A DNA stretch of 64,000 nt from Psammoneis japonica (taxonomy: Eukaryota). The stretch lies in NCBI GenBank assembly GCA_008632985.1, contig QPGO01000074.1:62001-126000 (forward strand). Reading direction: 5' to 3'. Shown here piece after piece: positions 931-61,780 of the stretch. A program made the translations under genes and the position numbers. The notes below the pieces were generated by a model. It did not search any database, was not told the origin of the DNA, and saw only the letters and a list, made by a program, of their open reading frames with translations. Within the stretch, counting starts at the first letter, position 1. Each line of letters begins with the position of its first letter.

Positions 931-980
931 TCGGGGACTTGGAGCCAAGAGCCTTCACCCATCACACATGGCATGAGACC

Positions 981-10490: not shown

Positions 10491-10519
10491 GCAGAAAGAC
10501 AATTTTGGAGCAATCACCT

Positions 10520-16330: not shown

Positions 16331-16414
16331 CATGCTTTCTTTCTGTGTTTTCTTGGAGTTGCAGGAGTGGAGCTGGGTGCTTGACATCTTGCACCACACA
16401 CCAGCATCCACATT

Positions 16415-16890: not shown

Positions 16891-17779
16891 ATCAGCAGCA
16901 CTTCAAGAAAGCGAGCTGCAACTGCTGCTGCAAACTCTGGGGTGTTGTCTCCACAAGCATCATTCAACTTAAACATGAACAACAAAATGGAATGTTCATG
17001 GTGCAATGCAAATGATTTTAATTTACAGGTTTTGCAGGGACAGAGGGTGGGCACTCTCATGGGGAAAACGTGCCCCTGTTTCACAGCAAAACTTTGTGTT
17101 TTCCTGACAGGGAGTGGGGGTCTGACCCCACAGTGTGAAAATGTTCATCTGTCACAGTTGACATGTTGTTGCCAGCTGCACAACTGTCAAGGTTTGAAAC
17201 AACAGAATTTTGCACTGTGACAGATTTTAAAAATTGCTGTGAGAAAGGTGGTCTGGATCACTCCAAAATGCATGCTCTGATGCTTGATCTCAAATGTGGC
17301 AGACATGACAAGGTCAGGCTGCATTGACAACACACTCATGTTCTGACATTGAGATCAGAAAAAACAAGGTCAATTGTGCTGCAATCCTGGTTGACTGGCT
17401 TGCAGAGGTCACCCGGATCCAGTGCAACCCAAGAGTTCTTTTTGCGTGCTGCCGGCGGGAACATTCCCAGCCTGCCAAAACAAAACACCGAACTGCATTG
17501 TTCGCACTCTGACAAGTCAGATGCAGCAAGAGCAGTGCAGGCATCATGCACAATTGGCTTGGCTCGCGGAATCTCTCTGGATCCAAGAACGACGGCTGAC
17601 TCATCGTGGTGTTGCAGGCTGATCAAGATGGTGGTCAAGCCAGCTCATCTGCTGCTGTGTCAATCAGCACCATGTGCAGCTCATGGGTGATTACATGAGG
17701 CATGCCACTCGGCAGAAGCAATGTTTTCAGTGTTGTTGGCCCATGACTGATCCCATCGTCACCGGCAGTCCACCAAACA

Positions 17780-27500: not shown

Positions 27501-27999
27501 GTTTTTTGGAATTGTCTGAGATTGCCCAATTGTGAGAATGCATGCATTCATGCATGAATGTGCCATCAAGTTAAAGAGTTACAGAGACCTGTCGATGGTC
27601 ACAAAGACAGGCAGGAAACTGCCATCAATGTCTCAACCAATCACAGATCCAGTGACCAATGAATTCCAAGGTCTGAGGTTCAAAATGAGAATGGAGTCTT
27701 GCTTCTGTTTTTCTTTTGTGCAATCAAGAACTTCTGGTTCTTGATGAGTCTTCACACCATGTGCATCTGTGTCGCTTCCAGCACCAGTGCAAGTCACTTC
27801 TTGTTTTCTCTCAATTGTTGCTCGTTGTCAAGCAGCCCAATTCTTGTTCTCACAGTTTAGAAATTGGCAAAACTGCTCCTGCTTGATCATCTGCTTTGCC
27901 ATTTTGCTCTCTGCAACACAAAAACTGCCACAAACCCACACACTTCCTCTGCACTGTAGAGACCTGACTTGCTTCAAAATTGTTGCAGAAACCAGAGCC

Positions 28000-30020: not shown

Positions 30021-30029
30021 CCCCCCCTC

Positions 30030-31750: not shown

Positions 31751-31802
31751 AAGGAGGCGGTGTGATCTAAGCTGAGGGAGTCTCAGCTGTGAAGAATCGT
31801 CA

Positions 31803-33086
31803 TCAAATTGCCCTGTGCTGCGTCATGATGTGCCCATGGATGATCCATGATTTCTTGCAGACTTCCTTGTGTTTTCCCAAAGTCCAGTCCCACTGCTGAC
31901 ACTGTTTGCTGCAAAACCAAACTTTCTTGCAGTTGCTGCAGTGCATCATTTTGGCCGGGGCAACAACATTCTCTTTCTTGGTGCAACAAAAGTTGCAAAT
32001 TTTGCTGCTTGGGTCTTCTTCATCCTTGCTCGTCCTTTCACCCAAACAAATCTTTGTCTGCTGCTGAATGCTTGAAGCCTGTTCTGGTGAGACAAAAGAA
32101 CACATGTGCATGTTGTCCATCATGTCGGCGCAGCGTTTGCACGCTGGAGAGCAACAGTGGAAGTGCCAGCAATGGTTGCAGTGAATCTGGTGTGGTTTCT
32201 CGGGAGTCTCAATGTTGGAACAAGGAGTGACTGTGCATTTGGGAAAGCATTTGCAGCACTGAGATGCCGTTCTCAAATTCATGAGCCTGCAGCGCATGGA
32301 GTTGCAAGACTTGCGCCAAACCAAACTTTTCTCTTGCAGAGTGAAATCAGCCTTGGTGCGCAGCACACCAGAAGTAGATCTTGACTCAAGTTCACCCAGA
32401 ATCTCGTGCCACTCTCCATGCATTTGCCAATGTGCATCAAGAACGTCCAACATGCCGAGCCGTCTCATGGTGGGAATGAGAAGATTGACAGGAATGTCTC
32501 TCTTGGTTGGCGCAGAACCCTGGAAGGTGCTGGGATCGAAATCCACACCCGTCTCGGGAAGGACAACATCCCAAGTGTCCACACATGCACCAGCCAAAAA
32601 CTCGCGAACGCGAAAATGAAGAACAGTCTTGATCATTTCACTCGCATCATGGTGACATTTGATCCTCAAAGAGAGGGTGCAGAGCAGGCTTTTGTGGATG
32701 GCCTCACAAATGCGATCCTTGAGAGGCGCGCCCCACTTTGCACTTCCCAACATGTGCTTGAAAAAGGTCGACATGTAGTGTGCCTTGGTCTGCATGAGAT
32801 CAGTGTGCTCTCGCAGCTGTTGCTGCATTTCTGGTGTGATTGCACTGTGACGACCCCATGTGTCAAAGATGCAATCGACAGCACAGGCAATCGTCTGCTC
32901 GTGAAAGCCCTGAATCTGGTCAATGGCAGCTGCAGATGGTTCGCCACACTTGACAAACCGCTTGAGGCGATTCAATGACTTCCCACCTTCATCGAACTCT
33001 GTCAGCGCAGGCAGGCTCTGCCCTTCAAAGTCGTCGACGACATCTTCGACTTTTGCGAGCCAACTTAGATCAGAGACGTGCGTCAT
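31803..33086 (-). pseudogene. MYND zinc-finger protein gene, hyper-edited (ORF still open)
   Basis: C-terminal MYND CNFC...CSNCKKVWFCSKQCQQWDW..KHKEVC and a second MYND-like motif. Only one Tyr in 427 aa, with Cys/His excess. Confidence 0.7.
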
Positions 33087-36000
33087 GGTGACTTGCAGAG
33101 TGCCTCAGCTTCAGTGGCAGGAGTGGACTGCATCCACATTGCTCTGTTGGTGCGGTCCATCACCCAATTGGGTGCTCCGCATTTTAGATTTTTGGTGCTG
33201 CCACGCTATGCACTGGACCAACCGACGCACGCAACCGACCAACCACTCCCAACTGGGAGGTCTGCAAGTGGTGCGGAAGACACTGGACAGCAGGCAACCC
33301 CTGTGGGCAACCGGTGTTTGGAAAAATCATGTGAACGCTGGACAGACTCTGCGTGTTTTTCATCCATGCCATCCGTTGAAATGTTGTTCTTGGCAGACGA
33401 TCGGCAACAATGGGGTCAGTTCTTGCGGTGCCCCGTCATGGGTCAACAATGCTGAAAAACCCATTTTTGTTGATTGAGGTGCCTTTTGCAATCGCCCACA
33501 CATTGAACATGGTGCCAATCATCCCGTGGTTTGGCTTTGTGATCGATTGATCTGGCCACCACAATCTGTCCGTTGATCATGCTTTGTGTGCTGGATCTGG
33601 AGAATCTCCGCAAGCCAGCCAATTGTGCATGATGCTTGCATTGTCTTCCTTGACTTCAATGCACACATTGGAGCATGAGCATTGCAGTTGGGTTTTGCTG
33701 TTGGCATGGTCTGGGATTGTGATCCCGCCACCTCAGATGCCTCTCTGATGATTGCACTGGATCCGGGTGCAGTCCGCAAGCCAGTTGACATGGATTGCAG
33801 TTCAATCCAGCCTCGTTGATTTTGATCTGTTGTGTCAAAACATGAGTGTGACATCTGCCACAGCCCATTGCCTTTGCTGTTTGCTTCACACCCATCTCTG
33901 ATCGTGTTGAACCCGGATCTTCCGCGCAACATTCTTGCCACATCCTCGGCCCTTTTCTTGTTGCTTCTGATCTGTTGTGCCAGAGCAATGATGTGCTGTC
34001 CACACAGCCTGCTGGTGTTCCCTCTTCACTTTACTCTCATCACATTTGCTTGATGAAACAGGCATCTTTGCTGCATCTCTCCACTCATTCGCCATCACGG
34101 ACGTCACATTTTACATTTTTTGTGCTTCATGCATGTGTGTGTCACAACATTCTTTGTTGACCATTGCAATGGTTTCACATGAATCACTTTTGTCACATGT
34201 TCTGATTTGAACAAAATGCATCTTTCAATGCTTGGGCGAGATGCAACTCCCCTTTTGCATTTTTGATGAAATCGATTGCATCATTTTTGATGTTGCTTTG
34301 TGCACATTTTCATGAACAATCCCCCCACCCATGAGTTTCCACAAATGTTTGATCTCAGACGGAACTGGCACTTCATCTGCGTGGTCCACAGATTCCATGG
34401 GAAAAATCATGACCACAACTTTGAAATTTTAAAACTCTCAGGACCGGACCGGATTTTCCCTCCATTTGCTTTCCTTTTGTCAAAATTTTGACCTGCTCTG
34501 TCTGATGCTCAGTCTTGTTGACCCACCCTTGCACAACTCTGGTCATGCAGAGCAAATCCCGCTGACTTGTCATGAGTTTCCAGCACAATTTCTGAGCAGA
34601 TCTGCAACAAAATTCTCATCTGAAAAACTCACTTCTCTCTCACAAAACCCCGGTTTTGCCTTTTTGCACTCAGCTTTTTTGTCTCATTGCAACCCTTCCG
34701 TCCAGCCATGGCCGCCAATGTTCTTGCCACAATCAAACATGGTGCACAACTTCTCCTGCCAAGTGCTTTTTGCAGTCAGGCACTGAGGCTGAGTTCTTGC
34801 TTAACCAAACAAAGCTTGCCCTCCATCATGACACCAGCTCTGCCATTGCTGACTTTGTCTGTGGTCAGTTTGAACAGCTCCTCATGTTCTGTGAAGGACG
34901 CATTGTCCCAGTCACAAAACCCACTTCCTTCCTCAATGGTGGCAATGAAGCCAAGCATTTGTGCAGCTTCCTCAATGCCATCGGCAAAGTTGTTCCCATG
35001 TTGGCAACTTGCCAATGTTTCAAGGCACATTTTGTCTCCTTGGCACCTCAAGGCGACGTGGTGACATGCAACTTGCCTCGTGCTGAGACTGCTTTGGATG
35101 ACATTGAAGGGCCTCTACAGCCCAATGGCGCCAGCAATCCTCCATCCCTTTGGCACCTCAACTTTGGCAATCCTGCCATTGCTGAAGAACAGCCAGTCAT
35201 CACTGCTCCCCCCCCTCCTTTCCTCTCCCTCCAGGTTGCTCCTTTCCTCTGGAATTCATTCCTGGAAATGATTGTCCCAATCTGGCTGCTGAGTTTCTGG
35301 CATTGCACATGTGGCAGAAAAGGCCATTGGCTGCATCCAACAGCATGATGTGGGGCATTCTCTTGACCAAGGAGGACCTCTTTTTGATCAAGCCACCAAT
35401 GGTCTCCAAGTTGTTGATGACAATTTCACAACTCTCAAAGTCTGCAACTTCTGTGATGACAATTTTCATGTGGTTGTGCCCTTTTTGGATGGTTGCGCAA
35501 GCATCCAAACTGCCATCAGGACATTCTCCAACTTGACCTGGCAGACTCTTGGGGCCATGGTTCAAGGCCCAACTGCAAACAATGTGCAAACGGAGTTCAG
35601 ACAGGTGCAGCTGCAGTCACTCAAAGCCCTGTCACTGTCAACGTTGACACCCCTGAGACCAAGAAGGATCAGGATCTCAGGAAGAGGGCTGCTGACATTC
35701 AGTCTTGGTGCTCTTTGTCCTTTTGCCACAAGGTGGTGGGTTCTGATGCCATTGCTCTCAGCACACTCAAGCCAGTTTTTGTCAATGCTTTCCAGGAGTT
35801 GAGCAAGACCAAAAGGGCTTGCTCTCTCTGTGAGGTTGTTGTTGCAGCTCTCAACAGCCAGAAATCAATGGATGTCTTTGATCAAGTTGTTGCCTTTTGC
35901 CAGCTTGTGCAAATGATGCTTTCCCTGATGGCATTTGTTGCTTTTGTCTTGCTGACCAACCTCCAAAAGCTTTGGTCACAATGTGTCTTGCTGACACCAA

Positions 36001-36307
36001 CATCATGAACTTCTCCACTCCCCACATGGACAACGCAGAATGTTCTCAGAAGGCGAAGGAAGGCCAGGAGATTTCCAAGCATTCTCTTGCTGCAGATTCA
36101 AAGAACACAATGACCAAGTTGATCAAGAAATCCACCCTTTGCAACAAAGGTCATGCCTGTGACTCCTTGGACGTTGTGTCTGCTCTTGCCAACTTCAGGC
36201 TTGTCTTCAATGCTCTCATTGAGAACTTTGATGAGACAGCTCTCTGGCAACAGCTTCTCTGCCACCACCGCGTGACTTTTGGCAAGAGTCGAAAGCAACG
36301 GGTTGTG

Positions 36308-36744
36308 TGCAACACACAGCTGCCAATGAGAGTCAGTGCATCACGGCGACGTGTTGCAGCCTTTAAATGTCACAAAGGGCGTGACAAAAACAACCTTTTG
36401 TCTGCATGCATGCTGCATTGTGAATTCATGGCGGAGTGGTTCATCGCAACCATCAGGCAGGAGGCCAGGGGTTCGAAACCCTGAGTGGGAGTTGTCTGCA
36501 GCAACGTTGATCACTGTCGAACGCGCAAAACTCTGTGCAGTTCTGTGTGTTCCTTCGCACTGTTCCGCCAAAACCGTGCAGTGTCAGCACACGTTGGTAA
36601 AGAGCCGCATGGGCGCGTGATGCATGGGGAGGAGTGCAACACACAGCTGCCAATGAGAGTCAATGCATCACGGCGACGTGTTGCAGCCTTTAAATGTCAC
36701 AAAGGGCGTGACAAAAACAACCTTTTGTCTGCATGCATGCTGCA
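36308..36744 (+). mobile_element. 437-bp miniature LTR element (TRIM-like): 110-bp LTRs 36308-36417 and 36635-36744, 4-bp TSD TGTG
   Basis: TG...CA LTRs differ at one base. Polypurine tract ggggaggag precedes the 3' LTR. Absent from the paralogous gag copy at ~38755. Confidence 0.85.
36426..36490 (+). promoter_or_regulatory. tRNA-derived Pol III promoter-like segment (A box TGGCGGAGTGG, B box GGTTCGAAACC)
   Basis: D-arm-like gcgg-agtggttca-tcgc and T-arm-like caggg-gttcgaaa-ccctg; no proper anticodon arm. Confidence 0.55.
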
Positions 36745-39700
36745 TGTGAGCAATGGCAACACCCATGAAATTGCTGCAAATGTGCTCAATGACACTCAAA
36801 ACATCATCCATGCCTTCTTCCAACTTTGAGGTGTTCTGGGTTGCAGCGAAGCCATTCCCAACTTGCAGGATGTCAGTGTCTGGGCTTTGGACATCTCTGA
36901 GTGCTTGGCTGGCCAGTCGACTCAGGATCTGGAGACCAACATCAGTCGTGTCCCCCCCCCTGGAACTTTTGGCAGCAAGTGCTTGCTCTGTCAGCTTGCT
37001 GCAGAGTCAGGTGCCACTTTGGCGACTGGCAAGCACCCAGCTGAATCACCCCCTGCTGCAGCATCTCCATCCAAGAAGCTTTGTTGCAAACAGACATTGA
37101 CTTGTGCAAGAAGGATGGGTCTCCCAGCTGTCTCTGGAAATCCTTGCCAGCCTCCCATCACCCTGGTTGTGGCCAAGAAAAGCGCAGATTCAAGCACTGA
37201 AGAGCACCTGTGTCCTTGCTTCTTGACACGCGGTGCTCACTGCAGCCATCAGAAATGCGGCAAGCCCCACACTGCAAACTTGTGTGCAACCTCCCCGATG
37301 GGAAGTGTGGCGAGTTGATCAATTTCGTCAATGATGCTGGCAACCTCTTTTGCTGAGAGAAAGGGCCCCAGCGGCGCATCTGCTCAGTCTCATCTTTTGA
37401 CAAACTGGCAAACCTTCTGTTTTAAAATGTCACCTCACACTGAAATTCCTTTGGTTTTTTTTCAACCTTGCTCCTCCAGCTTGAATTGTTGACTTGGCTG
37501 TTGCAAATTCTTCAGGCAAAACCGTGGGTGCAAAATGGGACCCAGGATGCAGCCCCTCTGCTTCCTGCTGGAAACAAGCAGATGCCATCTGACTTGCTTG
37601 GTTCAGCACCTCAAGATGTCCCAGATGCAGCACCTGTCTCTTTGGATGAAATCAAAGAGCTTCGCCCTGTTCTGCCCCCCATGAATTGACCAAGTGCCTT
37701 GCCATGCCATTGCAGCTCTTCCCCTGGCTTTTCCTCTCCCTCCAGGTTGTTCCTTTCCTCTGGAGCTCATTCCTGGAAACAATTGTCCTGGTTTGGCCGC
37801 TGAGTTTCCGACGCCAAGTGTGTGGCAGAAGGCCATTGGCTGCATCCAACAGCACAACGTGGGTTGTTCTCTCAACCAAGGAAGACCTCGTTTTGATCAA
37901 GCTGCCAATGGTCCACAAGTTGTTGATGATTTCATGAACCTCAACATCCACAACTGTGGTGACAACAATTTTCAGGTGGCTGCACTCTTTTTGGACGGTT
38001 GTGCAAGTGTCCAAACTGCAATCAGGACATTTTCCAACTTGACCTGCCTGGCAGCAGACTCTTGGGGCCATGGTTCAAGGTCCTGCTCCAAACAATGCAA
38101 ACAGAGTTCAGGCAGGTGCAGCTGCAGTTGCTCAAGGCCCTGTTGCTGTCAACGTCAATGCCCTGAGACCAAGAAGGACAAGGATCTCAGGAAGAGGGCT
38201 GCTGACATTCAGCCTTGGTGCTCTTTGTCCTTTTGCCAAAAGGCAGCAGGTTCTGACACCATTGCTGTTGGTGAGCTCAAGCCAGTTTCATTGATGCTCT
38301 CCAGGAATTGAGTGAGACCAAAAAGGCTTGTTGTTGCAGCTCTCAACAGCCAGAAATCAATGAATGTCTTTGATCAAGTTGTTGCCTTTTGCCCAGCTTG
38401 TGCAAGACTTTCCCCAAATGCTTTGGTCATGATGTGTCTTGCTGACTTCAACATCATGAACTTCCTCATTCCCTGTGTGGACAATGCGGAATGTTCCCAG
38501 AAGGTTGAGGAAGGCCAGGAGATTTCCAAGCATTCTCTTGCTGTGGATTCCAAGAACAGGGCTGCTGAGTCAATGAAGAAATCTGCCCTCTACAACAAAG
38601 GTCATGACCGTGACTCCTCAGATGTTGTGTCTGCTCTTGCTGACTTCAGGCTCATCTTTGATGCTCTCATTGAGAACTTTGATGCAACAGCTCTTCAGCA
38701 ACAGCTTCTCCACCATTGCCGCATGGCCTTTGGCGAGAGTGGCAAGCAATGGATCACGAGCAACGGCAACACTCATGAAATTGCTGCAAACATGCTCAAC
38801 AACATTCAAAACATCATCTGCACTTTCTTCCAACTTGGAGGCATCCCAGATTGCCACGAGGCTGTTTGCAACTTGCAGGATGTCAGTGTCTCCAGGCTCT
38901 GGATGTCTCCGAGTGCTTGACCAATCAGTCGATTCATGATCTGGAGACCAACATCAGTGGTGGTCCCCCTGGAACCTTTGACAGCAAGTGCTTGCTCCGT
39001 CAGCTCACTGCAGAGTCAAACACTGCACCCAACACTCTGAGCCTTAAAAAGCTCAATCTTCTCATTTCTTTTCTTTGGGATTTGCTTGGATGCAAATGTG
39101 ACACAAGAGCCCTCACTGTTGGCATGGTGGCTCACAACTTGCACAAGCTTTTGATCATCCTTGGGGATTGGCTTGCATGACAACCGCATCAGTTGGTGGA
39201 CATGTTGTCTCCACCATGCCTGCTGGAATTCTACACATGTTGCTGCCCCTGTGCTCATTGCTGGCTCTTCCTTCTTCAGAACATTTTCAATGCAGACTTG
39301 GTTGCTCATTGTCTTGTCGCACAGTGGATGTTTGAATGACAAGGCAAGAAGGAGCAAACTTTGGACCAACTTCCTTGCAAGCTGCACCACTGTGTGTCTT
39401 CCATTCTCTCTTGGGAAAAAGCACAATTTGTCTGCCATGTGCACTTTGAGACTCCAGCATCAGAGCCTCTGCATTGGGCCATCTGCTGTTTGGTCAAGCA
39501 TCTCAAGTCAACTCCCCAACCAACAGGAGGCACAGATTGGAACTGTCATCCCACGTGACCCGCGAAGGCTTGAATTCTTCCCCAGATTCCAGAGACTGTG
39601 TTGTGATGAATGCTCTTGAATTTGTGGTGTCTGTCCTTGTCTTGGTGGGGATTGTTGCTTTTGTGGAGTCCATTGATGAACCCTTAGATCCAGAGTGCTG

Positions 39701-41654
39701 GTGAGGGCACTGTTCCTCTTGCAATTCCCAAGAACTTGGTTGTCCTGCAAAAACAGACAACTGGACTAGTTCTGGTTGACAAAATCGTCAGACTGCTTGG
39801 TCTCTTTGGGGGGCAGCAGATGCTTTGCATTTGTCTGCACTTTGCACTTGTGCCAGAATTGGCCCCAACTTGCAGGGCAAGCACTGTGAGCTGGCATCAA
39901 CACGCAATTGGCAAATGACATTGCCCATCCATCTACCCTCACCTCCCTCATTCTGTCCATGTTGCTCAGCCTAAAGACTTGGACCTTTTTCTTCCTGAGT
40001 CAAGAACTGCCACAGCCAATTTACTCTTGGTTGTTCTCCAAGTCATGGCCGGCCCCTGTGCAGACCCCACCGCACTTGGGATGGCTCGTGCACAATGCAC
40101 CCACTGTTTCAAATTCACCAAAGATGTGAAATGGAATTTGGATGACCCAGAGATGCTCGTGGAAGATCTTCCAGAGCATTGCTGCCAGCTGCAGCTTGCC
40201 ATGCATGCCTTGCATGTTGCAGCATGGGTTGACTCTGTTTTTTGTAAACAACTCAAGTTGGATTCTGTCCTGTGTTGAGTCAGAGATGTTGCAAAATTCA
40301 CTCATCTGTTTGGTTGCTGTTGTGATCATTGCTGTGACCAACCTTCCAACACTGGAATGGGCAAGATCTTCACAGCCATTGAGCAGGAGCTTGAGCAATG
40401 CAATGCAGCTCCAAATCATTGTGAAAGTTTCAGTGCTGAGATGCTCACCAAGTTGAAAGCTCGTGCTGATGCTCAGCATGCAGTGGATCCGGACAGCCTT
40501 GCTGGCACCAGGTGTGCCTTTTTGTGGTGCCCATCTCCAAGAATGGGTGCAGATGGCCAGTTGCTCCAGCCTGGTGTGTGTGGTGCCTTGACAGCATCTG
40601 CACTGAAGCTGGAGACTGTCAATGCCTCACCAATGCTGACACTTTGCACATCTTGGCTGAGTCCATGTCAAAGATGTGGGCATGGTGCTGGTGCAGACAG
40701 AAGAATGGCCAGCATGGCAAAGAGAAACTCTTCACTCTGAATCTTTGCCATGGAGGTCTTGATTTGGTCAAGCCCATGTGCCGCATCATTGAGTGGTTTG
40801 TCTGCCTTCGCAGTGCATCTGACACAACAACTCTGCTGTCATTGTGTGAGCCCATGGGCAAGGAGATTGAACTCATTGCCGCCAAGGCAATCAAGAAAGA
40901 CATGCATGAAGTGGCCCCAAGGTGTGTAAACTTGATCCGGTCAAGGACAAAAAGGCTGTCAAGTGATGGTCATCCCACTTGCTTCATGTCGAAGCCTGCT
41001 CAGTGCTCCATCAATTGGCTTTGGCACAGAAGCCATCCAGTGCTCTTGCACTGGCATTCAACTGCCTTCACGGCATGTCTTAGAAACTCTGCGTTGTTGG
41101 TGGACCACCAAGGCAGAGCTCTTGACCGCTCGGCGGCCATGCCCCACCTTTTGTAAATTTTTCAAAATTGTTTGTTGAAATTTTGTCTTTCTCATTTGTT
41201 TCTGGTTTGTTGACATGTTCGCATGTTTTGACCAGTTGTCTGGGCCACACTCATGAGCACTGGGATCTCAGCCCACCCGTCACATGTGGACTCCACTTTG
41301 GCATTGTTTTCAATTGAGCACAACAAGGCAGTTGGCATTGGCGCAAATGTGAGGTGACCTCCATGCTCCAAACCCACCCTGATTGGATGGTGTCATCTGT
41401 GTCGTGTGCATTCTTGAAGGTGCAAATGTGCTTTCATGACTCATTTTGAACTGTCCAATGGCTCTTGATGTGTTCCTGGGCCTTGGAACACGTCTTTGTG
41501 ACAATTTTCTTTTTCAGCGATTTGACACCTCACATTTGGAGGTCAATTCCATGGTTTAGATTCCATTTTTCTCTTTTTTTCTGGCTGGCTCTGATGCCTC
41601 CGATGACATGGGCACGCACACCGCACTTCGCACAATGCGTTGGCAGCCATCTGG

Positions 41655-42205
41655 TCTGTTCATGCATTGCTGGGGAACAAAATGGACGCAGCTAGATCTG
41701 CAGATTTGTCCCCCTTTTTCTGGCTGTTGTCTCAGCAGCATCACGTGAACACACATGTTTGCACATGTTCTGTGCATTGGATGTGTTCATGCATTGATTG
41801 TTGAGGCCATTTGGCAGCTCTGCACTGTGACACGTCATCGGCGGCATTGCACAGCCAAGCCAAGGCGGTGGCAGGGAATGTGCGATTTTTGGTGCCAAGA
41901 CAGCAGGCGAAGCACAAGGAGAGGACACCTTGCAGGCAGCTGCACTTTTGGAGGAGTCACCATGTGACAGCAGCACGCAGTTGAAGGTGGATGGACAGAC
42001 AACAGACAATGATGAGAGGCCGCCCCAGTTCCTCTCATTGTTCTTGGCCGGCAATCAGCAAAACAATGGGGTCAGATGCAGTGCCCCCTTGTGGGTCCAT
42101 GACACTGAAAAATTCCCACCCAGCCCATCCCTCTGTTCGTGCAATGCTGGGGAACAAAATGGATGGAACTGGATCTGCAGATTTGTTCCCCTTTTTCCCG
42201 CTGCT
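41655..42205. repeat. Short direct repeat (~41655-41730 and ~42133-42205)
   Basis: tgctggggaacaaaatgga....ct.gatctgcagatttgt.ccccttttt occurs twice. Confidence 0.75.
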
Positions 42206-42656
42206 GTGAAACATCACAGCTGAGCCACTCGGCTTGACCCACCACGCTTCCACTCCATCACAGTGGGGCCTTCAAAGCCTGAGCCTTGCAATCACTAAAT
42301 CACTGGCTGACCAATTGACCCGCTGCTCCACCAAACTACAATCCCAACTCTCCAACCTCAATTCGAAATCCATCCCTTTTCCTGCCTACATGACGACTCA
42401 GTAAGTTCCACCCTTGCTCCGCGTCTGCCCCCCCCCCCCCCCCGCGCCACTGGGTTATTGTGCGATCTGCATGTAAGGTACCGCATGCATCGCCGACTTC
42501 TTTTTGATGGTAACGACATCGGGCTTGAAATTCAACGTTGCCCGATAGATCCATCAGTTCTTCACTGAGGCCTGCCTTTGATCGTTCGTTCGGTTTCGAC
42601 GGAACTTATCAAACTGTGAGAACATATTTTTGAAAGGCTTGAGCTGTTTCGCTGCG

Positions 42657-48853: not shown

Positions 48854-50069
48854 TCACGCCTCACAAAATCCCACAACTACATCTGTAGCTACCTTGCCAA
48901 CGACATCCATTTTGTAACCTCCTTCCTGGATAAACACGGTTGGGATATCGCGAATCGTTCGGCCAATCGTTTGGCCCACTTTAGAAAAGTCATCACCGAT
49001 GAGCTTGAAGCCGGCTCGTCGAATGCTCACTTCGTCTCCTTCGTGCGTATCGAGACCTAGCGATACCACCAGCGCCTTTGCTCCAAAGTCAACAATTCTG
49101 TTCAAGCCCTGTTGTAATGCCACTTTGTAATCCTCCCATGTGGTGCCTGGAGATAGGGGCAAATGTAACGTAGTACCGACGCCGTCACCCGCTCCAGTTT
49201 GATCCGAGAAGCCACTATGAAACGGATAATCAAAGTCAGGGTCGCAGTGCAGTGAAACCACTAAAACAGTCGGATCCTCGTAAAAGATGGATGCTGTCCC
49301 ATTCCCACAGTGATAGTCTTCAATGTAACACAATGTATGAAAAAAGACTGTTGAGTAAGACTTCCAAATTACTTGTTTCTCAAGCCAGCCTTGTTCGACA
49401 CGTACCGACATCTAGAATTGCCACCTTGGAGCCGCCACCTAGCCGCGATTGAAGGCTCCGGGCGGCATAGGCTGCATGATTGATATAGCAGTATCCCCCA
49501 AAGCTATCATGAGCTGCATGGTGTCCAGGATGAGTTGTCACAGCATAACATGCACGTGATTGAAAGGATTCATGAACGGCTAAATTCACCACGGCCGCAT
49601 CCCACGTTAACTCCTCCTTTAAACGAGCAACAATCGGAGTGCACAAATCGGTGCAAAAATAAGCCACCTTTCCCATAACATTTTTGCTTGGACGTTGATG
49701 AGGACATCGAGGAAGCGGAACATTCAGCGGAACCAGTGGCGGAGGCACTCCCGGTGTGGTCTCTCGCAAGGCACAATCCGGATCTCTTCCGTCTCCAAGA
49801 TCTTCCCATTCTTTCCAGGCGGTCGTCAGAAACGCAAGCAGCCCTTTACTATGCACTGAATCATAATCGCGAATGGCGCCTGCTTGTGAACATGGTGGTG
49901 TCACGAATTTCACATTTGCTTGCGTTTGCCGTTGTCGCAAATGTTGCAAAATGAGTGCGCGACGATGCCGTGGGTGATTGTGAGTGTCGTTTGCATCCGC
50001 GTCCTTGTCGACCGAATCTAGAGGCTCCTCCGACTCAGAGGCACTCCTCGATACAACCACCAACTCCAT
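48854..50069 (-). CDS. Histone deacetylase superfamily / acetylpolyamine amidohydrolase-like protein (intron 49318-49405)
   Basis: PGHHA, GGYCYIN, spliced ILDVDYHCGNGT, VSLGLDT, QEGGY. Confidence 0.88.
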
Positions 50070-52277
50070 GTGCAGTTACGGTACAGTATCGAGGGTTGAT
50101 GTGGAAGCAGTGCTCCTCTGCCGCCGTACGTATTGCGCATCGAAAGGTCGCTGAAAAAGTGAGCACAAACGGACCCGTAGGATTCTACGTCTATGTACCA
50201 CGATATCTGTCCGTGACCCGGGTTGCGTCGCGATGATGATTAGATTATTCGCGATTGATTCGCGATCGATGGTCGATGGCGACGCGATACAGTACAGTGT
50301 ATGGGGAGAGGGGAGAGCGCAGAATGGAGAAAGGAGTTGAGGTACAGTATTGTGAAAATTGGCTCATCTTCGCTGGGAAAGACAGCACGGACACGGCCAA
50401 CTTGTATACCGGAGAGTAGCCAGACAAGTTCGTTCGCCCACTTCGTTAAGCATGTCGGCGAAAAAGGCACCTTGGGTCAAACGGCGTCAGTAGGGCCTAG
50501 TAAAAATTGGCCGGCAGTAGGGAAGCACACCGGTCTTAGCAGTGTTAGGAAGGGTTTCGGTTAAGCACGAAACTGGAGTCGTTTCCCTTTGAGCGTTTGT
50601 CAATGCCATGGGCAAAGGCTTTCATAGATTGTTGCTCTCACTTTTTCAAAAAAAAAAAAAAAAAGCCCGGAGAATAGTCTTGAGTCTAGGCTTTTCCCTG
50701 TTGTCATGACATTTAGTTCTCTTGGATTTGTGAGGGCGGCGTTCGCCATGCCCATGTCATACGATCCGTCCGCACTTCATAGCTCAAAAAGTTTTTGACA
50801 GAGATATCCGGAGCTCAGCCATCCATCCATCACGATCACGATCTTCACGATGTGTGAGTGCCAAAGTTTTGAATTGATTGTGTGTTACTAATGTATTGAG
50901 AACATTTATGGGATCAAGTGGCCGACGAACTGCAAATAGAAAGAGAATCAAAGAGGTACAGCACACTGCACAAAGGCTCCGGACAATACACACGATTGAA
51001 TCCTCTTAATCGTTTCTTCATCGTTCCATTGCCGTTTCGAGTCACTCTTTTTGATGTCGTCATAAGGGTCGTAGTCACACAAATCCACGCTGCAGGTCAA
51101 AAGGAATAATCGATGCTTTGGGAAGGAACCACCTACGGCCCAAACACCCCAAAACGCACGACCGCCCAATCCGGCCGAAAACGTCTTTGTCTCGGAGAAT
51201 CAACTCGCCGCTAGCATGAGAGTGTGAAATGGAGTCGTCTGGAACTGGTTTGAATAAAATCCGACCAATATTGCCTGTGTTGTGATCGATTCATCTTGGG
51301 GTGTAAGCGAGCATTCCGATGTGACGTAGGCAGAAAAGGTCGTCGATCAAGTCTTGACACCTTTGTTGACACCCGTTCTCATCCACTCCCGGCTCAAAAA
51401 TCAAAAAGCAAGATCAAACAACACCCAAAAAAGAGAAATCAAAGAACAAAGTAAGTGACATCGTGCAATCATCATTCTATCATCTCCACATGCACTGGGG
51501 GTGATGCACTGGGGGTGTAGGGGAACGCACGGGAAGGCGCCAGAGAGTTTTTGTTGACTCGGTCGGGCGCCGTCATCTTGCTTCCCATCGAAATCGCGAG
51601 TGTTCGACAACAAACCATCCACACCCCACCTTGTACTGTACTGTCCAATGCTTCAAGGAGGCCATGAACTCCTCACAATTGTCGGCAGTGGCCTTTTCCG
51701 GCCATGGTTGCCGCGGGCAGGTGTGGCGGGGAGCTTCTCAGGTTGAAGGTGGTGTTCGCTTGGGGTTCTCATCGTGACTGAAAATTGACACTCGTGACTC
51801 GTTCGGAGCTTCTCTTTTGAGATTCCGATCGAATGACTCGATCGACTCCCTTATCAAGCACGACATACACGCACGAACCACGACCCACGACCACCGATGT
51901 ATGACCACCACTGAGCACAGAGCACACCGTTGACCGTGACGAGTAAAGAGTGATGAATGAGCGCCGGCAGAAACATGGGTCATCACATGCACTTGGAACC
52001 ACAGCGTTGTGACTGTCATCCAGAGTCCACTCTGAGTATGATTTAACCTGCAGAGCATTGGTTCTTTTGTACGAGCACACATCGGATGCACGAGCGCCAA
52101 CCATACCACACATCACCCCCGCCGTCCTATCGTTCACTCGTTCATCAGCACTATGACAGTGCCGCTTGTCCAAAACAACAACATGCGACAATTCAATGCT
52201 AACACTGACCGTCGTTTCATTGTTTCGATTAATACAAGAGCAATATCACGGAAACTTGATTCGAACCCACCAACGAT

Positions 52278-54342: not shown

Positions 54343-54647
54343 TGTCAGGACGAATGATGTGAGCCTTTAGTCGCTCTTTCCCGCCCATCACGCTAGAGGC
54401 GTCGATCATCACACAATGTACGCCGAATAGAGTGTTAAGGGTACAATACAGGCAACAGTACGTATTGCTTAACAAACGCGTCAAAGGGGCAGCAGTGTGC
54501 CAGGATGGAAGAAAAGTGTCGATGCAAGCTTTTCCATGCAATGCAATCACCACGCCACACAAAACTTGTGCCCTGTTCAACAACATCAACACCGTGACGA
54601 TCGTCAAACCTCACTTTCATCGGGTCGAGTTCAAAGCAGTAGTCGTT

Positions 54648-54815
54648 CTATGCCTTTACGTAAATCACGCTCAAATTGTTGGCAGGCATTTCAACGGTTT
54701 CTTGGAGTGTCAAGCCACAAGCCGATGCTTCTTGGACAACCTGCTCCAGATCCCGCTTGCCCCAACTCGGGTCTCTCATTCGAAGACTCTTGTCAAAGTT
54801 TCTGTCCAAAAATGA
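54648..54815 (-). pseudogene. C-terminal fragment of a DUF938/METTL26-like methyltransferase
   Basis: NFDKSLRMRDPSWGKRDLEQVVQEASACGLTLQETVEMPANNLSV; the N-terminal part is missing. Confidence 0.7.
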
Positions 54816-55012
54816 GACTGTCCGAAAATGAGACGAGGAATGGACTTGTGAGACTGACCCAAATCCAAATTGTTTGCCAAAGACAGTCTCCAGAGAGAGA
54901 AAGAGACCCATGGCAATGGTTCCCATATGCAGCATGACTTACAAATTAGACTCGACAGCCGTCCCGTGAACCTTGTGGCTTGCAGGGTCCATGACAATGC
55001 AAGACACCTCCA

Positions 55013-58000
55013 CCCTAGAATTGCCACCTTGGCGCCACCACCTGGCTGCGATTGAAGGCTCCGGGCTGCATGGGCTGCATGGCCAATGATGTGGCAGTTT
55101 TCCCCAAAGCCGCTGTCATGAGCTGCATGATGTCCAGGATGAGTTGTCACAGCATAACATGCACGTGATTGAAAGGATTCATGGACGGCTAAACTCACCA
55201 TGGCCGCATCCCATGTTGACTCCTCTTTTAAGCAAGCAACAATCAGAGCTGCATGGTTGACACAGCAGTGTCCCCTGAAGCTGTCATGAGCTGCATGATG
55301 TCCCAGATGAGTTGTCACAGCATGACATGCACGTGATTGAAAGGATTCATGGACGGCTGCATTCACCACGGCCGCATCCCACGTTAACTCCTCCTTTGAA
55401 CAAGCAACAATTGGAGTGCACAAATCTGTGCAAAAACAAGCCACCTTTCCCATGACATTTTTGATTGGACACTGATGAGGACATCAAGGAAGTGGAACAT
55501 TCAGCAGAACCAATGGCGGAGGCTGTTGGAAAGTGTGCATCAAAAGCACAAACACAGAAATTGGACAGCATGCACCAGCCCAATGTGCTCCACATGAAGC
55601 ACCAGAGCTGCCAATGAAGCAGTCATCATTCTCTTTTAACTCTTAGAAAGCATTGCAATGACAAGCTTGTCCATTCTGCCCTCAGGATCAGCCTTGGAGG
55701 ACTGAAGCAGCCCTGAGACAGCTGCCAGAAGGGTGAATCTCAGCAGTTGAAAGAGAATGAACCAGCTGAGAGCTGCAAAAGTGAGAAAGAAGAAAAGAGA
55801 GTCATTCTTGCCAAGTGAGAGACATTTTCCTGCTTTTCCAATCCAACTTGAGTGGAAGAGGCAGAGGCAGAGGTGGCAACAGGAGCCATGGAAAAGGACC
55901 CTCTGGAAGAGGAAACAGGGGTGGCAAGCAGAGCCACAAGAGCATTGAAGACTGCGTCTGCTGCATTGGAAATGCCAAGCAAGCATCTGATTTTCAGATT
56001 GCAACTGAGTTCATCATCAACTGCACAAAGAAAACCTGTGAATTTGGAAATGATGTGGCAACTGCACTCAGCACTTACACTCCATGTGACATGAGTTCCA
56101 AGAAGCCAACTTTGCAGGTCAGCTCAACAGGAGATGACAAGATTGATGTGGCACTGAACAAGCAGTGTGAAATTGAACTCAAGACCAAATTTGATGCCCA
56201 CATTAAAAGGACTCAGATGCATGAGAACACCTTGATTAAGGCTTGTGCTCTGCTCTGGGAAAGGTGCTCCAAGGCCATGAAGAACAAGATTCAAGCAAGG
56301 AATGAATTCCAAACCAAGATTGAGAACAACTCCATTGAATTGCTCAAGACCATCAAGGAGCATGCATTGAATCATCAAGAGCACAGATGCGACATGGCCA
56401 TCATCTCAGATTCTATGAGGGCTGTGTTGGAAACCAAGCAAAAGGAAAAGGAGAGTCTGCAAGATTGCACCAAGCAATTCAGGGTTGCAAGAGACGTCAT
56501 GAAGTCTCACATCAGGGGACCAATTGTCCTCACCAAGATGGCAGAGGGCATGTTGGATTGTGATGAGTCCATGCAGACACTGTCAAGAAGTGTCAAGAGA
56601 AGGCATTCAGCCAGCTGATGGGTTTCATGCACTTGGAGATTGCAGATCAACGGAAGCACAGATCAATTGTCACTTCTCACAGGAATGAACACTCAACAGT
56701 TGCTCAAGAACAACCAGCATCCCAAGTCCATTGCAGAAGCCAACATGGTGTTGAGAAACCACACCTTTGATTGTGTCAAACAGCCAACAGGAACAGGAAC
56801 AATCAAAACAACAACTCTGATTCCAAGAAACAAGAAGAAAATCAAGAAATCACCCTGTCTTTTGCTCAGATGGAAGGCAGGTGTGCTGCTGTTGTGGAAA
56901 GGCAGGACACAAGTCCACCAATTGCAGGGAGAGAGGCTCAAGAGCTCAATCAGAATGGTCCATCAACAAGGCCAAGGCCAAAGAAGAAACAAGCACTGTT
57001 CAAGCAGCTGATGATGCCACCAGTGCTGCAACCATTGGGACCAAGTCTACAGTTTCTGGATGGGCTGGCACTCATGTTGATGCATCTCTCCACCAAGGAC
57101 AGTCTGATGACATGAGAGACTGGATTTTGTTGGACAATCAGTCCACAACCACCATCTTCTGCAACAAGAAGCCAGTCGCAGACATTTGTCTGTCTGATGA
57201 AGTCATGAGATTGCACACACACAGAGGAGTGCTGATCACGACTCACAAGGCCACTGTGCCTGGATTTGGTGAGACCTGGTTTAATCCAGATGCAATCACC
57301 AACATTTTTGCTCATTCCAACATGAAGAAGAAGCACAGGATCATGTGTGATTCCTCCCAAGACAATGCATTCACCGTTCATCTGCCCCACAAGAAGGTCA
57401 AGTTCAAGGAGGATGCAAGTGGGCTGCATGTCTACAAGCCCAAAATCCAAGACATCGGAGCTCAGCTCCAATTCACACAGAGCATTGAGGAGAACAAGAA
57501 GTTCTGCACTCCATGCCAATTTGAGCAAGCCAAAGAGCTTGAGAATTGTTGCACGTGTTGGGAAACCCAACCATGAACGATCTGAAGGCCATCATTTGCG
57601 TGAAGTGACAGCATCAAGAAAACAATCCTGTTACAACCAAGGACTTGGATTTGGCTGAGAAGATCTTTGGACCAGACATTGGAAGCCTGAAAGGCAAGGT
57701 CACCAGGTGAAAGCCAGAGCCAGTTGTGGAAGACTGCGTTGAGATCCCAAAGGAGCTCATTGCGGCTCAGCACAAAGTCACTCTTTGCCTGGATGGACTC
57801 AAGGTGAATGGATTGTCATTCCTCACCACAGCGTCATGAACATTTTTTATTGCACTGCACAGCTGCTGAAGGATTTAACCCAAGCAACCCATCAGGAAGC
57901 TCTGGAAGGTGTGCTGCAAGTCTAGAACAAGGCCAATTTAAAGGTCACGCGCATTCATTGCAACAACAAGTTCAGGCCCATTGGAAATGCACTTGAAGAC

Positions 58001-61000
58001 AAGTTCAATCTTAAGATGAACTGCACTCATGCTCAGGAGCATGTCCCAGAAGCCAAGCAGAACAACCGAGTCATTCAAGAACATGCCAGGGCAGTCTGTC
58101 ATCAACTGCCATTCAAGCATCTTCCAAAGCTCATGGTGGAAGTCATGGTCACTGAGGCTGCTGAGAAAGTCATTATTTTCCAGCCAAGCAAGGTGTTTCA
58201 AAGCATTGCAGTCCAAGAATGATTCTCCATCAAAAGAATCTAGACTGTGACAAGAGCTGCAAAATCACATTTGGCACTCATGTGCAAGCTCACAATGACC
58301 CGGATCCCAAGAACACCCAAGAGTCACGGACCTTGGATGGCATTTGTTTGCACCCAACCAACAGCAACCAGATTGGACATGAGTTGCTGCACTTGCACAC
58401 TGGCAAAAAGATCACCCGTTGCCAGGTCACCCCTGTGCCCATCACTGCAGCCTTCATCATTTGGCTGAAATGAACAAAAGATGCCCAACAGTCTCAAGAT
58501 TGAGAACCGCACTGGAATTGTCATGCGCAACAGTGCTTGGATTGCAGGAGTGAATTATGATGAAGATCATTCAAAGATGAAGACTGCAATCTAGAAGAAG
58601 ACACTAAAGCAAGGGACAAGGAAGACAACAAGGAAGGCAACACAGACTGGGGAGACTCCAAAAGAGGAGTCAGCCAACAAGAGCTGCAAGGAACAATCCA
58701 AGATCAAGAGTTGGATGAAGAAGCCAGCTGCATCAGCGAGGAGCAAGATGAAACTCAAGACAAAGCATCCCAACAAGAAGAGCATCTTGGAGACAATGAC
58801 AAAGAAGGTTCCCAATCATTGGAAGGAAGTGGAGTCTCCCAAGAAATTGATGACATGATTGAACACATCAATGAACTGCAGAATCAAGAGCAGGAATTCT
58901 CTCCAGAAGTGCAAGAGCTCACTGCCAAAATGCAAGAGCCAGAATCCAAAGACGAGTCTGGAGACAAACAGAGTGAAACTGAAGAGAGTGTTGAAGAAGA
59001 GCCTCTTGCCAAGTCAAGGACAGGAAGAACTCTCAAACCTCCAGTGAGATTTGATGATTGCCGGTGTCATTTACAGACTCAGGCTCACTTGCAAGTCAAA
59101 GAGTGCAGCTTGGAAATGGCCAGGATTGTGGCCATGACAATGTGCCAATGGAATGAAAAGATCAGTGCAATCACCGCTGTTGAGGAAGCACATGAATTCA
59201 TTCAAACTTGCAGCTTGGCATGAGGACTCCAGAAGGTTGGAGAAGAAGGCCACAAGTCGGCCACATCAGAGCTGCAGCAGATCCATGATGGAGCAGTTTT
59301 CAAGCCCATTCACATCAAGGACATATGACTCCTCTGGAGAGGAAGAGGGCCATGGAGAGCCTCATGTTTCTCACAGAGAAAAGAGATGTGGACAAATCAA
59401 GTCCAGATTGTGTGCAAACGGAAGCACGCAATGAGAGCGCATGGACCAAGACAAAACTGCCAGTCCACAGCATCCACTGAGTCCATTCTCATCACAGGAG
59501 TGATTGATGCCAAGCAAGGCCAAGACGTCATGACAGCAGACATTCCCAATGCATTTGTGCAGATGGACATTGAGGTCAAGGAAGAGAAGATCATCACGAA
59601 GATTTGTGGAAGGATGGTGGACATTTTGCTGGAATTAGATCCTGAAACTCGTCAGGACCATGTTGTGTGCAAAGGCAAGCACAAGGTCCTCTGCGTTGAA
59701 ATGTTGAAGGCACTCTGTGGAGTGTTGGTGTCTTCCACATTCTTTGTTGCAAGAAGTTCTGTCAAGACATCAAAGGAATTGGATTGAGATAATCCGCATG
59801 ATCCATGTGTGGCCACCGCACTGTGAATGGCAAAAAGCACACTGTGACATTGCATGTGAACGATTTGAAGTTGAGCCACATTGACAGCAAAGTCAACAAT
59901 GAGTTTAAGATTTGGCTTGACAAAACTTGTGCAGACAAGATTGGAAAGGTCAAAGTGATGTGTGGAAAGAGGCATGATTGCTTGGCCATGATTCTAGATT
60001 ACAACATTCCAGGAATGCTGCAAGTGGACATGGTGCTTTACATTTAAGGCGTGATCAGGGACTTTCCGGAAGAATTGTCTGTGACATGGATTGCCCATGG
60101 AACAAGAAGCTCAACAAGGTGGACAAGAAGAGCCAGAAGTTGGACCTCAAAGGTGCTCAAACATTTTGCACTTTTGTGATGAAGGGCATGTTTCTTTGCA
60201 AGAGAGCCAGACAGGACATCCAGCCTGGCATTTCTTTTCTCACCACTGGAGTCAAAGAACCAAATGAATTGGATTGGATGAAGCTGGTGAGGGCCATGAA
60301 TTTCCTCAAGAAAACCCAGCATGAGATTGCAGCCACATCTGCTGGAGACAAAGTCATCATCAAGTGGCATGTTGATGCCTCCTTTGCAGTTCACCCAGAC
60401 TGCAAAAGCCACACTGGAGCAACGATGACTCTTGGAAAAGGTGTCATTGCATCTGTCAGCATGAAGCAGAAGATCAACACCAGGAGTTCCACCAAAGCAG
60501 AAATCATTGCAGGAGACAATGTTGTGTCAAAGGTCCTTTGGACCAAGCTGTTTGTTGAAGCCCAAGGTTTTCCAGTCAAGCACAACATCATGCATCGTGA
60601 CAACCAGAGTTGCATGAAATTAGAAGAAAACGGAAAAGCCAGTTCAGGCAAACGCACAAGACACTTCAACATCAAGTGTTTTTACATCACCAATCTCATC
60701 AAGCATGGAGAACTTGAGATTAAGTTCTGCCCAACAGACAAGATGATTGGAGATCACATGACCAAGCCTGTGGTTGGCAAGAAGCTCATTGTTGATCGTC
60801 AAACTGTCATGAACATTCAAGTGCCTGAGATGGGCAAACACACTTGGAAGTGCAAAAAATCTTGTCATTGGTCAGCAGGAGCATGTTGGAAAGTGTGTGT
60901 CAAAAGCACAAACACAGAAATTAGACAGAGTGAAGAAGACACATGTGCCAGCGCTGATGTGCTCTACGTGAAGCAAGAGAACTGCCAATGGAACAGCTGC

Positions 61001-61780
61001 TGTGTTCTCTTTTGACTCTTGGAAAGCATTGAAATGACAAGCTTGTCCATTTTGCCCTCAGGATCAGCCTTTGAGGACTGAAGCAGCCCTGAGACAGCTG
61101 TCAGAAGGGTGAATCTCAACAGAGGCACTCCAGGTGCGGTCTCTTGCAAGGCACAATCCGGATCTCTTCCGTCTCCAAGATCTTCCCATTCTTTCCAGGC
61201 GGTCGTCAGAAACGCAAGCAGCCCTTTGCCATGCACCAACTGACAATCGCCAATGGTGCCTGCTTGTGAACATGTTGGTGTCATGAATTTCACTTTTGAT
61301 TGCGTTTGCCATTGCCGCAAATGTTGCAAAATGAGTGCGCGACCACGCCTTGGGGGTGATTGTGACAGTCGTTTGCATCTGAGATTGTGAGAGTCGTTTG
61401 CACCCGAGTGTCGACGGAATCAAGAGGCTCCTCCACCTCAGAGGCACTCCTCGACACAACCACCAACTCCACATGTCCCGGTAGCTACAGCACCGAGGGT
61501 CGATGTTAAGAGCAGTGCTCCTCTGCTGCCGCATTGCGGCTCTGCGGTAAAATGCCATTGAAAAAGTGAGCACAAAAGGTGGGATTCTACAGTGCAGTAC
61601 ACACTGTAGGCAAGTACCACACGGTATCTGTCCGTGACCCGGGTTGCATCGCGAAAATAGCGATCGACGTACCCAGTACTATGGTACTTGAGGGGGTGAA
61701 CGGTGAACGCAGAAAGCAGAAAGGAGTTGAGTTATTGTGAAGCTCATCTTCGCTGGGAAAGACGACACGGACGCGGCCAA
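55013..61780 (-). pseudogene. Duplicate of the HDAC gene 5' part and upstream region (49411-50400), split by the copia insertion, with an internal ~170-bp tandem duplication
   Basis: 55013-55523 and 61122-61780 align to 49411-49746 and 49742-50400. Confidence 0.9.
55524..61121 (+). mobile_element. Full-length degenerate Ty1/copia (CoDi-type) LTR retrotransposon; LTRs 55524-55745 and 60884-61121; 5-bp TSD GAGGC
   Basis: TG...CA LTRs; GAGGC at 55519-55523 and 61122-61126, single in the intact gene at 49742. Gag knuckle CCCCGKAGHKSTNC, protease WILLDNQST, integrase EHVPEA, RT ADIPNAF/HVNDL, RNase H VDASF/DNQS/TKP. Many stops and frameshifts. Confidence 0.95.

Follow-up and report, generated by a model that had tools for sequence, protein, structure and literature searches.

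We analyzed a window of 64,000 nucleotides (nt) from the diatom Psammoneis japonica, meaning the whole stretch at positions 62,001 to 126,000 of the forward strand of contig QPGO01000074.1 (assembly GCA_008632985.1), in which a decayed copia retrotransposon lies within one of five domains almost devoid of the dinucleotide TpA. Dinucleotide counts over the 64 kb gave an observed/expected ratio (O/E) of 0.27 for TpA and 0.61 for CpG, with CpA and TpG near 1.5. A 500-nt scan resolved the window into two compartments with sharp borders and a bimodal distribution of TpA, the five depleted domains holding mostly 0–5 TpA per 500 nt and the rest of the window 7–32 (Table 1). Pooled, the depleted compartment (36,504 nt) contains only 151 TpA (O/E 0.06), with CpG at an O/E of 0.30 and TpG/CpA at 1.70–1.74, whereas the normal, genic compartment (26,500 nt) contains 923 TpA (O/E 0.54), with CpG at 0.99 and TpG/CpA at 1.17; base composition is equal in the two. 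Loss of TpA is wider than loss of CpG, as positions 1–3000, 32001–33500, and the flank at 61122–61455 are TpA-poor yet keep much of their CpG, and the two losses are therefore separable. The trinucleotides TAA and TAG together number 222 in the depleted domains and 768 in normal DNA (both strands), even though the depleted sequence is longer. TGA is nearly the sole stop codon remaining in the depleted domains, and stop-to-stop open reading frames (ORFs) of at least 100 aa occur there at 35.9 per 10 kb, compared with 22.3 per 10 kb in normal DNA.

The element at 55524–61121 is a dead Ty1/copia long terminal repeat (LTR) retrotransposon. It interrupts a duplicate piece of a deacetylase-family gene of the host, and the empty target site is still visible in the paralogue at 49742–49746. 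Frameshifts, stops, and indels of the kind left by long decay are present in the element as well. ORF 59978–61015 has 21,510 relatives at E ≤ 0.001 in a representative protein library, and the nearest named relative comes from the diatom Nitzschia. A Pfam search of the window's copia ORFs returned no match at E ≤ 0.01 nor at E ≤ 10. This silence on the decayed pieces is accounted for by the family model, RVT_2, which scores merely 37–63 bits even in the copia relatives, where it was present in all three tested. A profile built from 33 intact full-length relatives (1000–2000 aa, with at least 2.5% Tyr), picked from the 150 matches listed, detected no second copia fragment in the window. Among 39 metagenome relatives of the element, none is depleted in TpA (O/E 0.43–0.83), and in several of them CpG O/E is 0.15–0.4. 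The decayed element has a G+C content of 46–48%, compared with 36–45% in relatives (loci L001–L015); it contains 34 TpA where 315 are expected, and the loss of about 280 would explain a rise in G+C of about 5 points, up to the overall G+C of the host.

A sequence-only reading of this DNA had proposed that TAY codons for Tyr (Y, pyrimidine) were converted to TGY or CAY in three unrelated classes of transposable element. All ten peptide strings on which that reading relied were found at or near the positions it gave. At the 15 columns of the copia profile in the window test where Tyr is the consensus (Tyr in at least 60% of at least 20 relatives), the window encodes Phe at six, Cys at five, His at two, Arg at one, and Tyr at one; the consensus residue is therefore kept in 1 of 15 Tyr columns, compared with 218 of 315 columns for all other residues (Fisher p = 1.4e-6). 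That reading would have been refuted by active relatives naturally carrying Cys or His at such positions, and this does not hold, as these residues occupy only 23 of 644 cells (3.6%) of the relatives over the 21 Tyr-consensus columns of the profile. Among the seven copia motifs that had been placed at Tyr consensus positions, FGTHVQ, KALCG, HDCLAM, and NIKCF are strongly supported by the relatives and WHVDASF and GDHMTKP moderately so, while DGICL is not supported, its column being mostly Ala. Comparison of ORF5 with 35 closer metagenome relatives gave His at three of six Tyr columns, with Cys, Tyr, and Phe at one each; the six peptide patterns by which these metagenome loci were retrieved include three that contain the His residues at issue, yet most of the loci encode Tyr there. 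Four copia-like public metagenome proteins that are 33–48% identical to the window ORF (P0032, P0108, P0055, and P0039) are likewise Tyr-poor, with Cys or His at most Tyr-consensus columns (five Cys and five His at 12 Tyr columns in P0032, four Cys and five His at 11 in P0108), so that the same footprint is present in other public assemblies.

Table 1. Coordinates of features in the 64-kb window, numbered from its first nucleotide.
Feature	Position	Strand	Remarks
Copia 5' LTR, TG...CA	55524..55745	+	5-bp target-site duplication GAGGC just before, at 55519–55523
Degenerate copia gag-pol	55785..61012	+	At least 12 frame pieces, collinear with profile positions 8–1487 of 1502
Copia 3' LTR, TG...CA	60884..61121	+	GAGGC duplication just after, at 61122–61126
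FGTHVQ	String 58270; His codon 58279..58281	+	Tyr in 31/33 relatives
DGICL	58336	+	Column has Ala 19, Tyr 7, Cys 4 of 33
KALCG	String 59707; Cys codon 59716..59718	+	Tyr in 33/33 relatives
HDCLAM	String 59973; Cys codon 59979..59981	+	Tyr in 28/33 relatives
WHVDASF	String 60365; CAT His codon 60368..60370	+	Tyr in 13/33 distant and 23/28 close relatives
NIMHRDN	CAT His codon 60593..60595	+	Tyr in 20/22 close relatives; not among the motifs of the sequence-only reading
NIKCF	String 60668; TGT Cys codon 60677..60679	+	Tyr in 27/33 distant and 12/20 close relatives
GDHMTKP	String 60749; CAC His codon 60755..60757	+	Tyr in 10/33 distant and 13/18 close relatives
Intact deacetylase-family exon, Pfam Hist_deacetyl	49380..50075	-	Normal DNA; unmutated reference copy with empty copia target site
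Deacetylase pseudocopy, upstream half	55015..55523	-	Tyr codons now Cys or His; one CGA changed to TGA
Deacetylase pseudocopy, downstream half	61122..61780	-	Split from the other half by the copia insertion; most CpG kept
TpA-depleted domain	1..7000	.	Contains 948–1388, paralogue of 7260–7698 in normal DNA
TpA-depleted domain	10500..13500	.	Unclassified repeats
TpA-depleted domain	14500..17500	.	Carries CMCATLC and THQKPMNLF (- strand), both reverse transcriptase-like; not confirmed as Penelope
TpA-depleted domain, largest	26000..42500	.	ORF 40470–41156 with AFTACLRN (tyrosine recombinase identity not confirmed) and a 2.5-kb tandem duplication
TpA-depleted domain with the copia element	54500..61500	.	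0–7 TpA per 500 nt; CpG low too

A second, independent case of Tyr loss is provided by host DNA, namely the deacetylase pseudocopy on either side of the copia element. In the ungapped aligned parts, all five Tyr codons of the intact exon are lost from the pseudocopy, three to Cys and two to His. In two alignments to solved acetylpolyamine amidohydrolases, Tyr occupies two of the same positions both times and a third position once, indicating that Tyr is ancestral at these deacetylase codons. We extended the comparison to four alignments of a normal with a depleted paralogue, two of which share part of the normal copy. Of 54 TpA sites in the normal copies, 13 are kept in the depleted copy, 35 read TG or CA, and 6 read otherwise, so that 35 of the 41 changed sites went to TG or CA; of 94 CpG sites, 58 are kept and 26 read TG or CA. 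Conversely, none of the 235 TG or CA sites of the normal copies reads TA in the depleted copy. The pair formed by 7260–7698 (normal) and 948–1388 (depleted) alone has 13 sites where a normal TA stands opposite CA or TG, one of them a Tyr-to-His change in a conserved exon, and no site of the reverse kind. Two-copy comparisons by themselves cannot polarize a change, and one might suppose that TG and CA are ancestral and that the normal compartment gained TpA through C-to-T mutation at CpA, in the manner of repeat-induced point mutation (RIP). We find this scarcely credible, given that the TpA-bearing copies are the intact, domain-matching genes, that the outgroup enzymes have Tyr at the codons concerned, that in both sets of copia relatives (33 and 35) Tyr occupies positions that are Cys or His in the window, and that normal DNA, at a TpA O/E of 0.54, shows no excess of the dinucleotide. 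Paralogues, outgroup enzymes, and copia relatives alike strongly support a change from TA to TG or CA with TA ancestral, as the sequence-only reading had held.

The two copia LTRs started out identical when the element inserted, yet at four sites one now has CA where the other has TG, and repeat pairs inside the depleted domains contain 66 such discordant sites, compared with one in the sole normal-normal pair. Because each discordant site requires independent hits on one ancestral pyrimidine-purine step, the process must have acted on integrated DNA. TG and CA products occur at 20:15 in the paralogue comparisons, and Tyr-to-Cys and Tyr-to-His changes are about equally frequent; since both products occur, both strands were hit. 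Homology is not the trigger, since the paralogue outside a domain is untouched. On the 3' side of the copia 3' LTR, no TpA of the pseudocopy has escaped conversion as far as about 61455; a mixed stretch follows to about 61580, and beyond 61588 all are unconverted. Conversion of the non-transposon flank accordingly extends about 350–450 nt from the LTR end, and most CpG in the flank survives. These comparisons establish the pattern and direction of the change and show that it took place after insertion, affected both strands, and reached into flanking DNA.

The same observations bear on whether the elements were already short of TpA on arrival, as a result of selection on transposons, horizontal origin, or ADAR-like RNA editing fixed by reverse transcription. 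Retroelements do pass through RNA, and ADAR prefers a 5' U, as stated in a 2026 preprint (bioRxiv 10.64898/2026.01.13.699255). Such a history is nevertheless highly improbable, as the two LTRs acquired different products from one starting sequence, host-derived pseudocopies and flanking DNA were converted too, both strands were hit, and all 39 relatives of the copia element have ordinary TpA. RNA editing carried into DNA by retrotransposition, which would mark one strand, before integration, and within the element only, is contradicted by the joint occurrence of TG and CA products, by the discordant LTRs, and by the converted flanks.

Non-coding LTRs, flanking DNA, and host-derived pseudocopies are converted as well; loss of Tyr is a by-product of domain-wide TpA to TpG/CpA conversion and not a property of tyrosine or of transposable element classes as such. 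It had also been suggested that removal of Tyr inactivates these enzymes while no stop codons arise. This is half right: TAA and TAG do disappear, but decay of CpG creates stops of its own (CGA to TGA), and the copia frame is broken. The claim of three unrelated element classes holds for copia, while the identities of the proposed tyrosine recombinase and Penelope reverse transcriptase were confirmed by no search. The string AFTACLRN does occur at 41064 on the + strand, and the pattern ...HW.S.AF..C.R in its ORF resembles a recombinase C-terminus in motif only; neither the class nor the "catalytic Tyr" was confirmed. ORF 40470–41156 gave no Pfam Phage_integrase match at E ≤ 1, nothing in a phmmer search of PDB at E ≤ 10, no homologue in a word-based search among proteins of 125–399 aa, and no usable match in the ESM Atlas. 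Similarly, CMCATLC and THQKPMNLF are present on the - strand at 16259–16239 and 15816–15790, respectively, and the Penelope label reflects a motif resemblance that was not confirmed: the region 15790–16307 (- strand) matched no Pfam reverse transcriptase family at E ≤ 1, had no homologue among proteins of 196–2000 aa, and gave only chance-level matches with phmmer against PDB.

Independent, accurate reads (run X1), analyzed as contigs and unitigs with a single-copy word depth of about 50–58, were compared with the window. X1 unitigs reproduce the TpA-poor sequence with 1–4 differences per 340–670 nt and cross the domain border at 61404–62000. Depth rises to 110–1220 over the copia element, indicating that it belongs to a multicopy family. 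At the single-copy domain edge 54262–54757, X1 and the window differ at eight sites, and at seven of these the window has TpA where the sole X1 allele is CpA or TpG. Their context is T-A-Y at five sites, T-A-G at two, and T-A-A at none. By our own count, 25 of the 40 listed differences between X1 and the window are exchanges among TA, CG, TG, and CA. The edge differences hint at recent or continuing activity.

Some sequencing platforms are known to miscall bases at modified motifs, and the disagreement between window and X1 at seven TpA sites of one domain edge could be read as a sign that modified bases in heterochromatin were miscalled while the real DNA still reads TA and CG. We consider a sequencing or assembly artefact of this sort very unlikely. 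X1 unitigs at about 50× word depth repeat the TpA-poor sequence inside the domain and pass through its border, strand-specific miscalls would yield TA and CG no less frequently than TG and CA, and the frameshifts, stops, and indels of the copia element belong to old decay.

Survival of TpA varies with its flanking bases. Survival of tetranucleotides, expressed as their occurrence in the depleted domains relative to the normal DNA of the window, is 0 for ATAC/GTAT (none found; 149 in normal DNA), 0.02 for both GTAC and ATAT, 0.05 for ATAG, 0.12 for both ATAA and CTAC, 0.135 for GTAA, 0.18 for CTAG, 0.30 for CTAA, and 0.75 for TTAA. R-TA-Y (R, purine) is erased most thoroughly and TTAA least. 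By our own arithmetic, the values fit an additive per-strand model in which A is lost fastest before a 3' pyrimidine, more slowly before G, and most slowly before A. When 15 copia relatives serve as the baseline, the ranking is near-identical, with ATAC/GTAT at 0 of 41 expected, GTAC at 0 of 15 expected, and TTAA at 10 of 24 expected.

We conclude that transposon-rich domains of this diatom very probably undergo post-insertion, DNA-level mutation of TpA to TpG/CpA that is nearly complete. The change would be an A:T to G:C transition at TpA on either strand, alongside which ordinary decay of CpG to TpG/CpA would run in parallel, most simply as decay of 5-methylcytosine in the same silenced domains. 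Targeting would be by domain rather than by sequence homology, covering the copia element together with its LTRs and extending a few hundred bases into host-derived neighbor DNA, and replacement of Tyr by Cys or His would be the protein footprint of the process. For the chemistry, we tentatively favor deamination of adenine to hypoxanthine in 5'-T-A-Y by a putative deaminase recruited to silenced chromatin, as proposed for the chlorarachniophyte Bigelowiella natans, a route that is quite possible but held with some reserve.

Thymine chemistry could generate the same pattern and direction. A TET/JBP-type oxygenase might convert the T of R-T-A in silenced DNA into 5-hydroxymethyluracil or 5-formyluracil, leading to mispairing with G and to T-to-C change. 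Mispairing with G is a property of 5-formyluracil, and some algae contain modified thymines in abundance. The changes described above are strand-symmetric, making A-to-G indistinguishable from T-to-C, and their context can equally be read as R-T-A. Adenine deamination is, on the other side, the only published proposal for this signature, and we regard thymine oxidation as unlikely, although not negligible.

Several points weigh against the account of domain-targeted TpA erasure by adenine deamination. Sequence alone does not separate A-deamination from a T-to-C route, the two being complementary descriptions of one change, and the enzyme and its chemistry are what we infer. The 3'-neighbor preference, strong among surviving TpA, is weak in the direct paralogue sample (C 8/28, T 15/38, G 6/18, A 5/22), whose small size and saturation keep it from confirming the preference, and the tetranucleotide survival figures presuppose that the ancestral composition equaled the baseline used. 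X1 may share a project with the assembly, and the seven edge differences could be differences of strain, time point, or assembly. Finally, the evidence comes from a single 64-kb window.

The copia domain is the one among the five depleted domains that contains a complete copia element, and the contents of the other four are without classification. A Pfam scan of 72 long ORFs from the depleted domains gave no match except a single zf-MYND finger, and an Rfam scan of the window gave no RNA family. The zf-MYND finger is in a 433-aa open frame at 31806–33104 (- strand) of the largest domain, which contains 1 Tyr, 30 Cys, and 24 His; a second MYND-type gene is located at 44394–45107 in normal DNA. 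The tandem duplication in the same domain has arms at 35219–36301 and 37730–38752 that are 78% identical and differ at many TG-opposite-CA sites. In the first domain, the region 888–3044 includes an exon that is 92% identical to the first exon of a normal-DNA gene (7024–7659, then 7752–9878, + strand, GAGKT), and behind this exon an open frame of 532 aa at 1449–3044 (+ strand) with a P loop-like GCGKT motif. TpA is lost from this copy, much of its CpG is kept, and its frame is open; the copy may be either a gene that still codes while the process is under way or a pseudogene of recent origin. A tblastn search of the window with ORF 1449–3044 found no paralogue. Between two depleted domains, positions 13501–14500 form a CpG-rich island (O/E 1.8–2.0) with normal TpA, within which an array of 10/15-nt tandem repeats occupies 14039–14331. 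Genes of the normal compartment are long and intron-poor. The best named matches of the threonyl-tRNA synthetase exon at 22856–24112 are 76–82% identical and nearly all from diatoms, followed by a bolidophyte at 74%, in agreement with a diatom host.

RIP of fungi changes C to T at CpA, creates TpA, and mutates both copies of a duplication. In both RIP and the present case, mobile DNA is riddled with one class of context-specific transitions that leak into neighboring sequence; here, however, TpA is destroyed, the change is from A:T to G:C, and the copy outside the domain is untouched. The window does not fall within fungal RIP, since TpA is low in the affected DNA and paralogues outside the domains are unchanged. 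Methylated transposons lose CpG through deamination of 5-methylcytosine, and diatom transposons are methylated. Decay of this kind resembles the conversion of CpG to TpG/CpA in the same domains, including the 26 of 94 paralogue CpG sites noted above, but it is unable to remove TpA, and TpA loss here reaches beyond CpG loss.

For the tRNA adenosine deaminases TadA and ADAT2/3, the natural target A34 follows U33. These enzymes share with the proposed activity the deamination of adenine beside a 5' U or T, and the bacterial TadA site, U-A-C, resembles the inferred T-A-Y preference; an activity on the DNA of chromatin domains would be hypothetical for them. TadA and ADAT2/3 are named as candidates in the B. 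natans preprint (10.64898/2026.01.13.699255). APOBEC3 and ADAR editing of animal retroelements (PMC4866542) is a deamination-type hypermutation that disables retroelements, and the B. natans preprint states that ADAR favors a 5' U (10.64898/2026.01.13.699255). APOBEC3 and ADAR act before integration, on replication intermediates or RNA, and on one strand, whereas here both strands are changed, the two LTRs independently, and flanking DNA in place.

The closest resemblance is to B. natans, in which, according to the preprint (10.64898/2026.01.13.699255), A-to-G/T-to-C hypermutation restricted to TpA affects an integrated giant virus and virophage and was measured in mutation-accumulation lines at a greatly raised rate (about 1e-7 to 1e-6 per site per generation), with an ADAT2-like DNA adenine deaminase as the proposed agent. 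Both systems show almost only A-to-G/T-to-C change at TpA, giving TpG and CpA, and in both the changes fall within discrete regions derived from foreign or mobile DNA, which have acquired low TpA and high CpA and TpG over the long term. The preprint also reports that low-TpA coding sequences in B. natans are enriched for reverse transcriptase and DDE domains, and that culture time points differ, to which the differences between X1 and the window may be the counterpart here. The two cases differ in that our host is a diatom, from another phylum, and in that depletion is near saturation here (O/E 0.06 over 36 kb), compared with a Rho of 0.45 given for the nucleocytoplasmic large DNA virus region of B. 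natans. Furthermore, the targets here are transposon domains and adjacent host-derived DNA, CpG is co-depleted in most domains, and the window displays a flanking preference (R-TA-Y erased, TTAA spared) and conversion that reaches about 0.4 kb into flanking DNA. In the main text of the preprint, a term search returned no CpG, trinucleotide, diatom, or Tyr (10.64898/2026.01.13.699255). In the literature on TpA hypermutation, transposable elements, adenine deaminase, and diatoms, we found no description of the signature except in this preprint; a lone "TpA" match in a Phaeodactylum chromatin paper proved to be the word "Tpase". We therefore classify the TpA-erasing hypermutation of the diatom with a kind described only once, recently, in another phylum.

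For annotation, the affected DNA is a hazard, being without TAA and TAG stops and full of long spurious ORFs, and transposon proteins within it drop below Pfam thresholds; Tyr-poor, Cys- and His-rich "proteins" of such origin are already present in public collections. For a search for the enzyme, the window adds that the process has a flanking preference, hits integrated DNA on both strands, is targeted by domain rather than by homology, reaches about 0.4 kb past the element, and can be separated from CpG decay. Its occurrence in a diatom, at saturation, would extend the process to another major algal lineage, one of great ecological weight, which suggests that it is old or recurrent. It is conceivable, although we put this forward as speculation, that diatoms and chlorarachniophytes, and perhaps much of the stramenopile-alveolate-Rhizaria (SAR) group, share a chromatin-guided genome defense in which a putative 5'-T-A-Y DNA adenine deaminase erases TpA on both strands of silenced mobile DNA, spreads over a few nucleosomes, and is still active in culture. 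Such a defense, if real, would amount to an "adenine base editor" found in nature, the counterpart of RIP in fungi.

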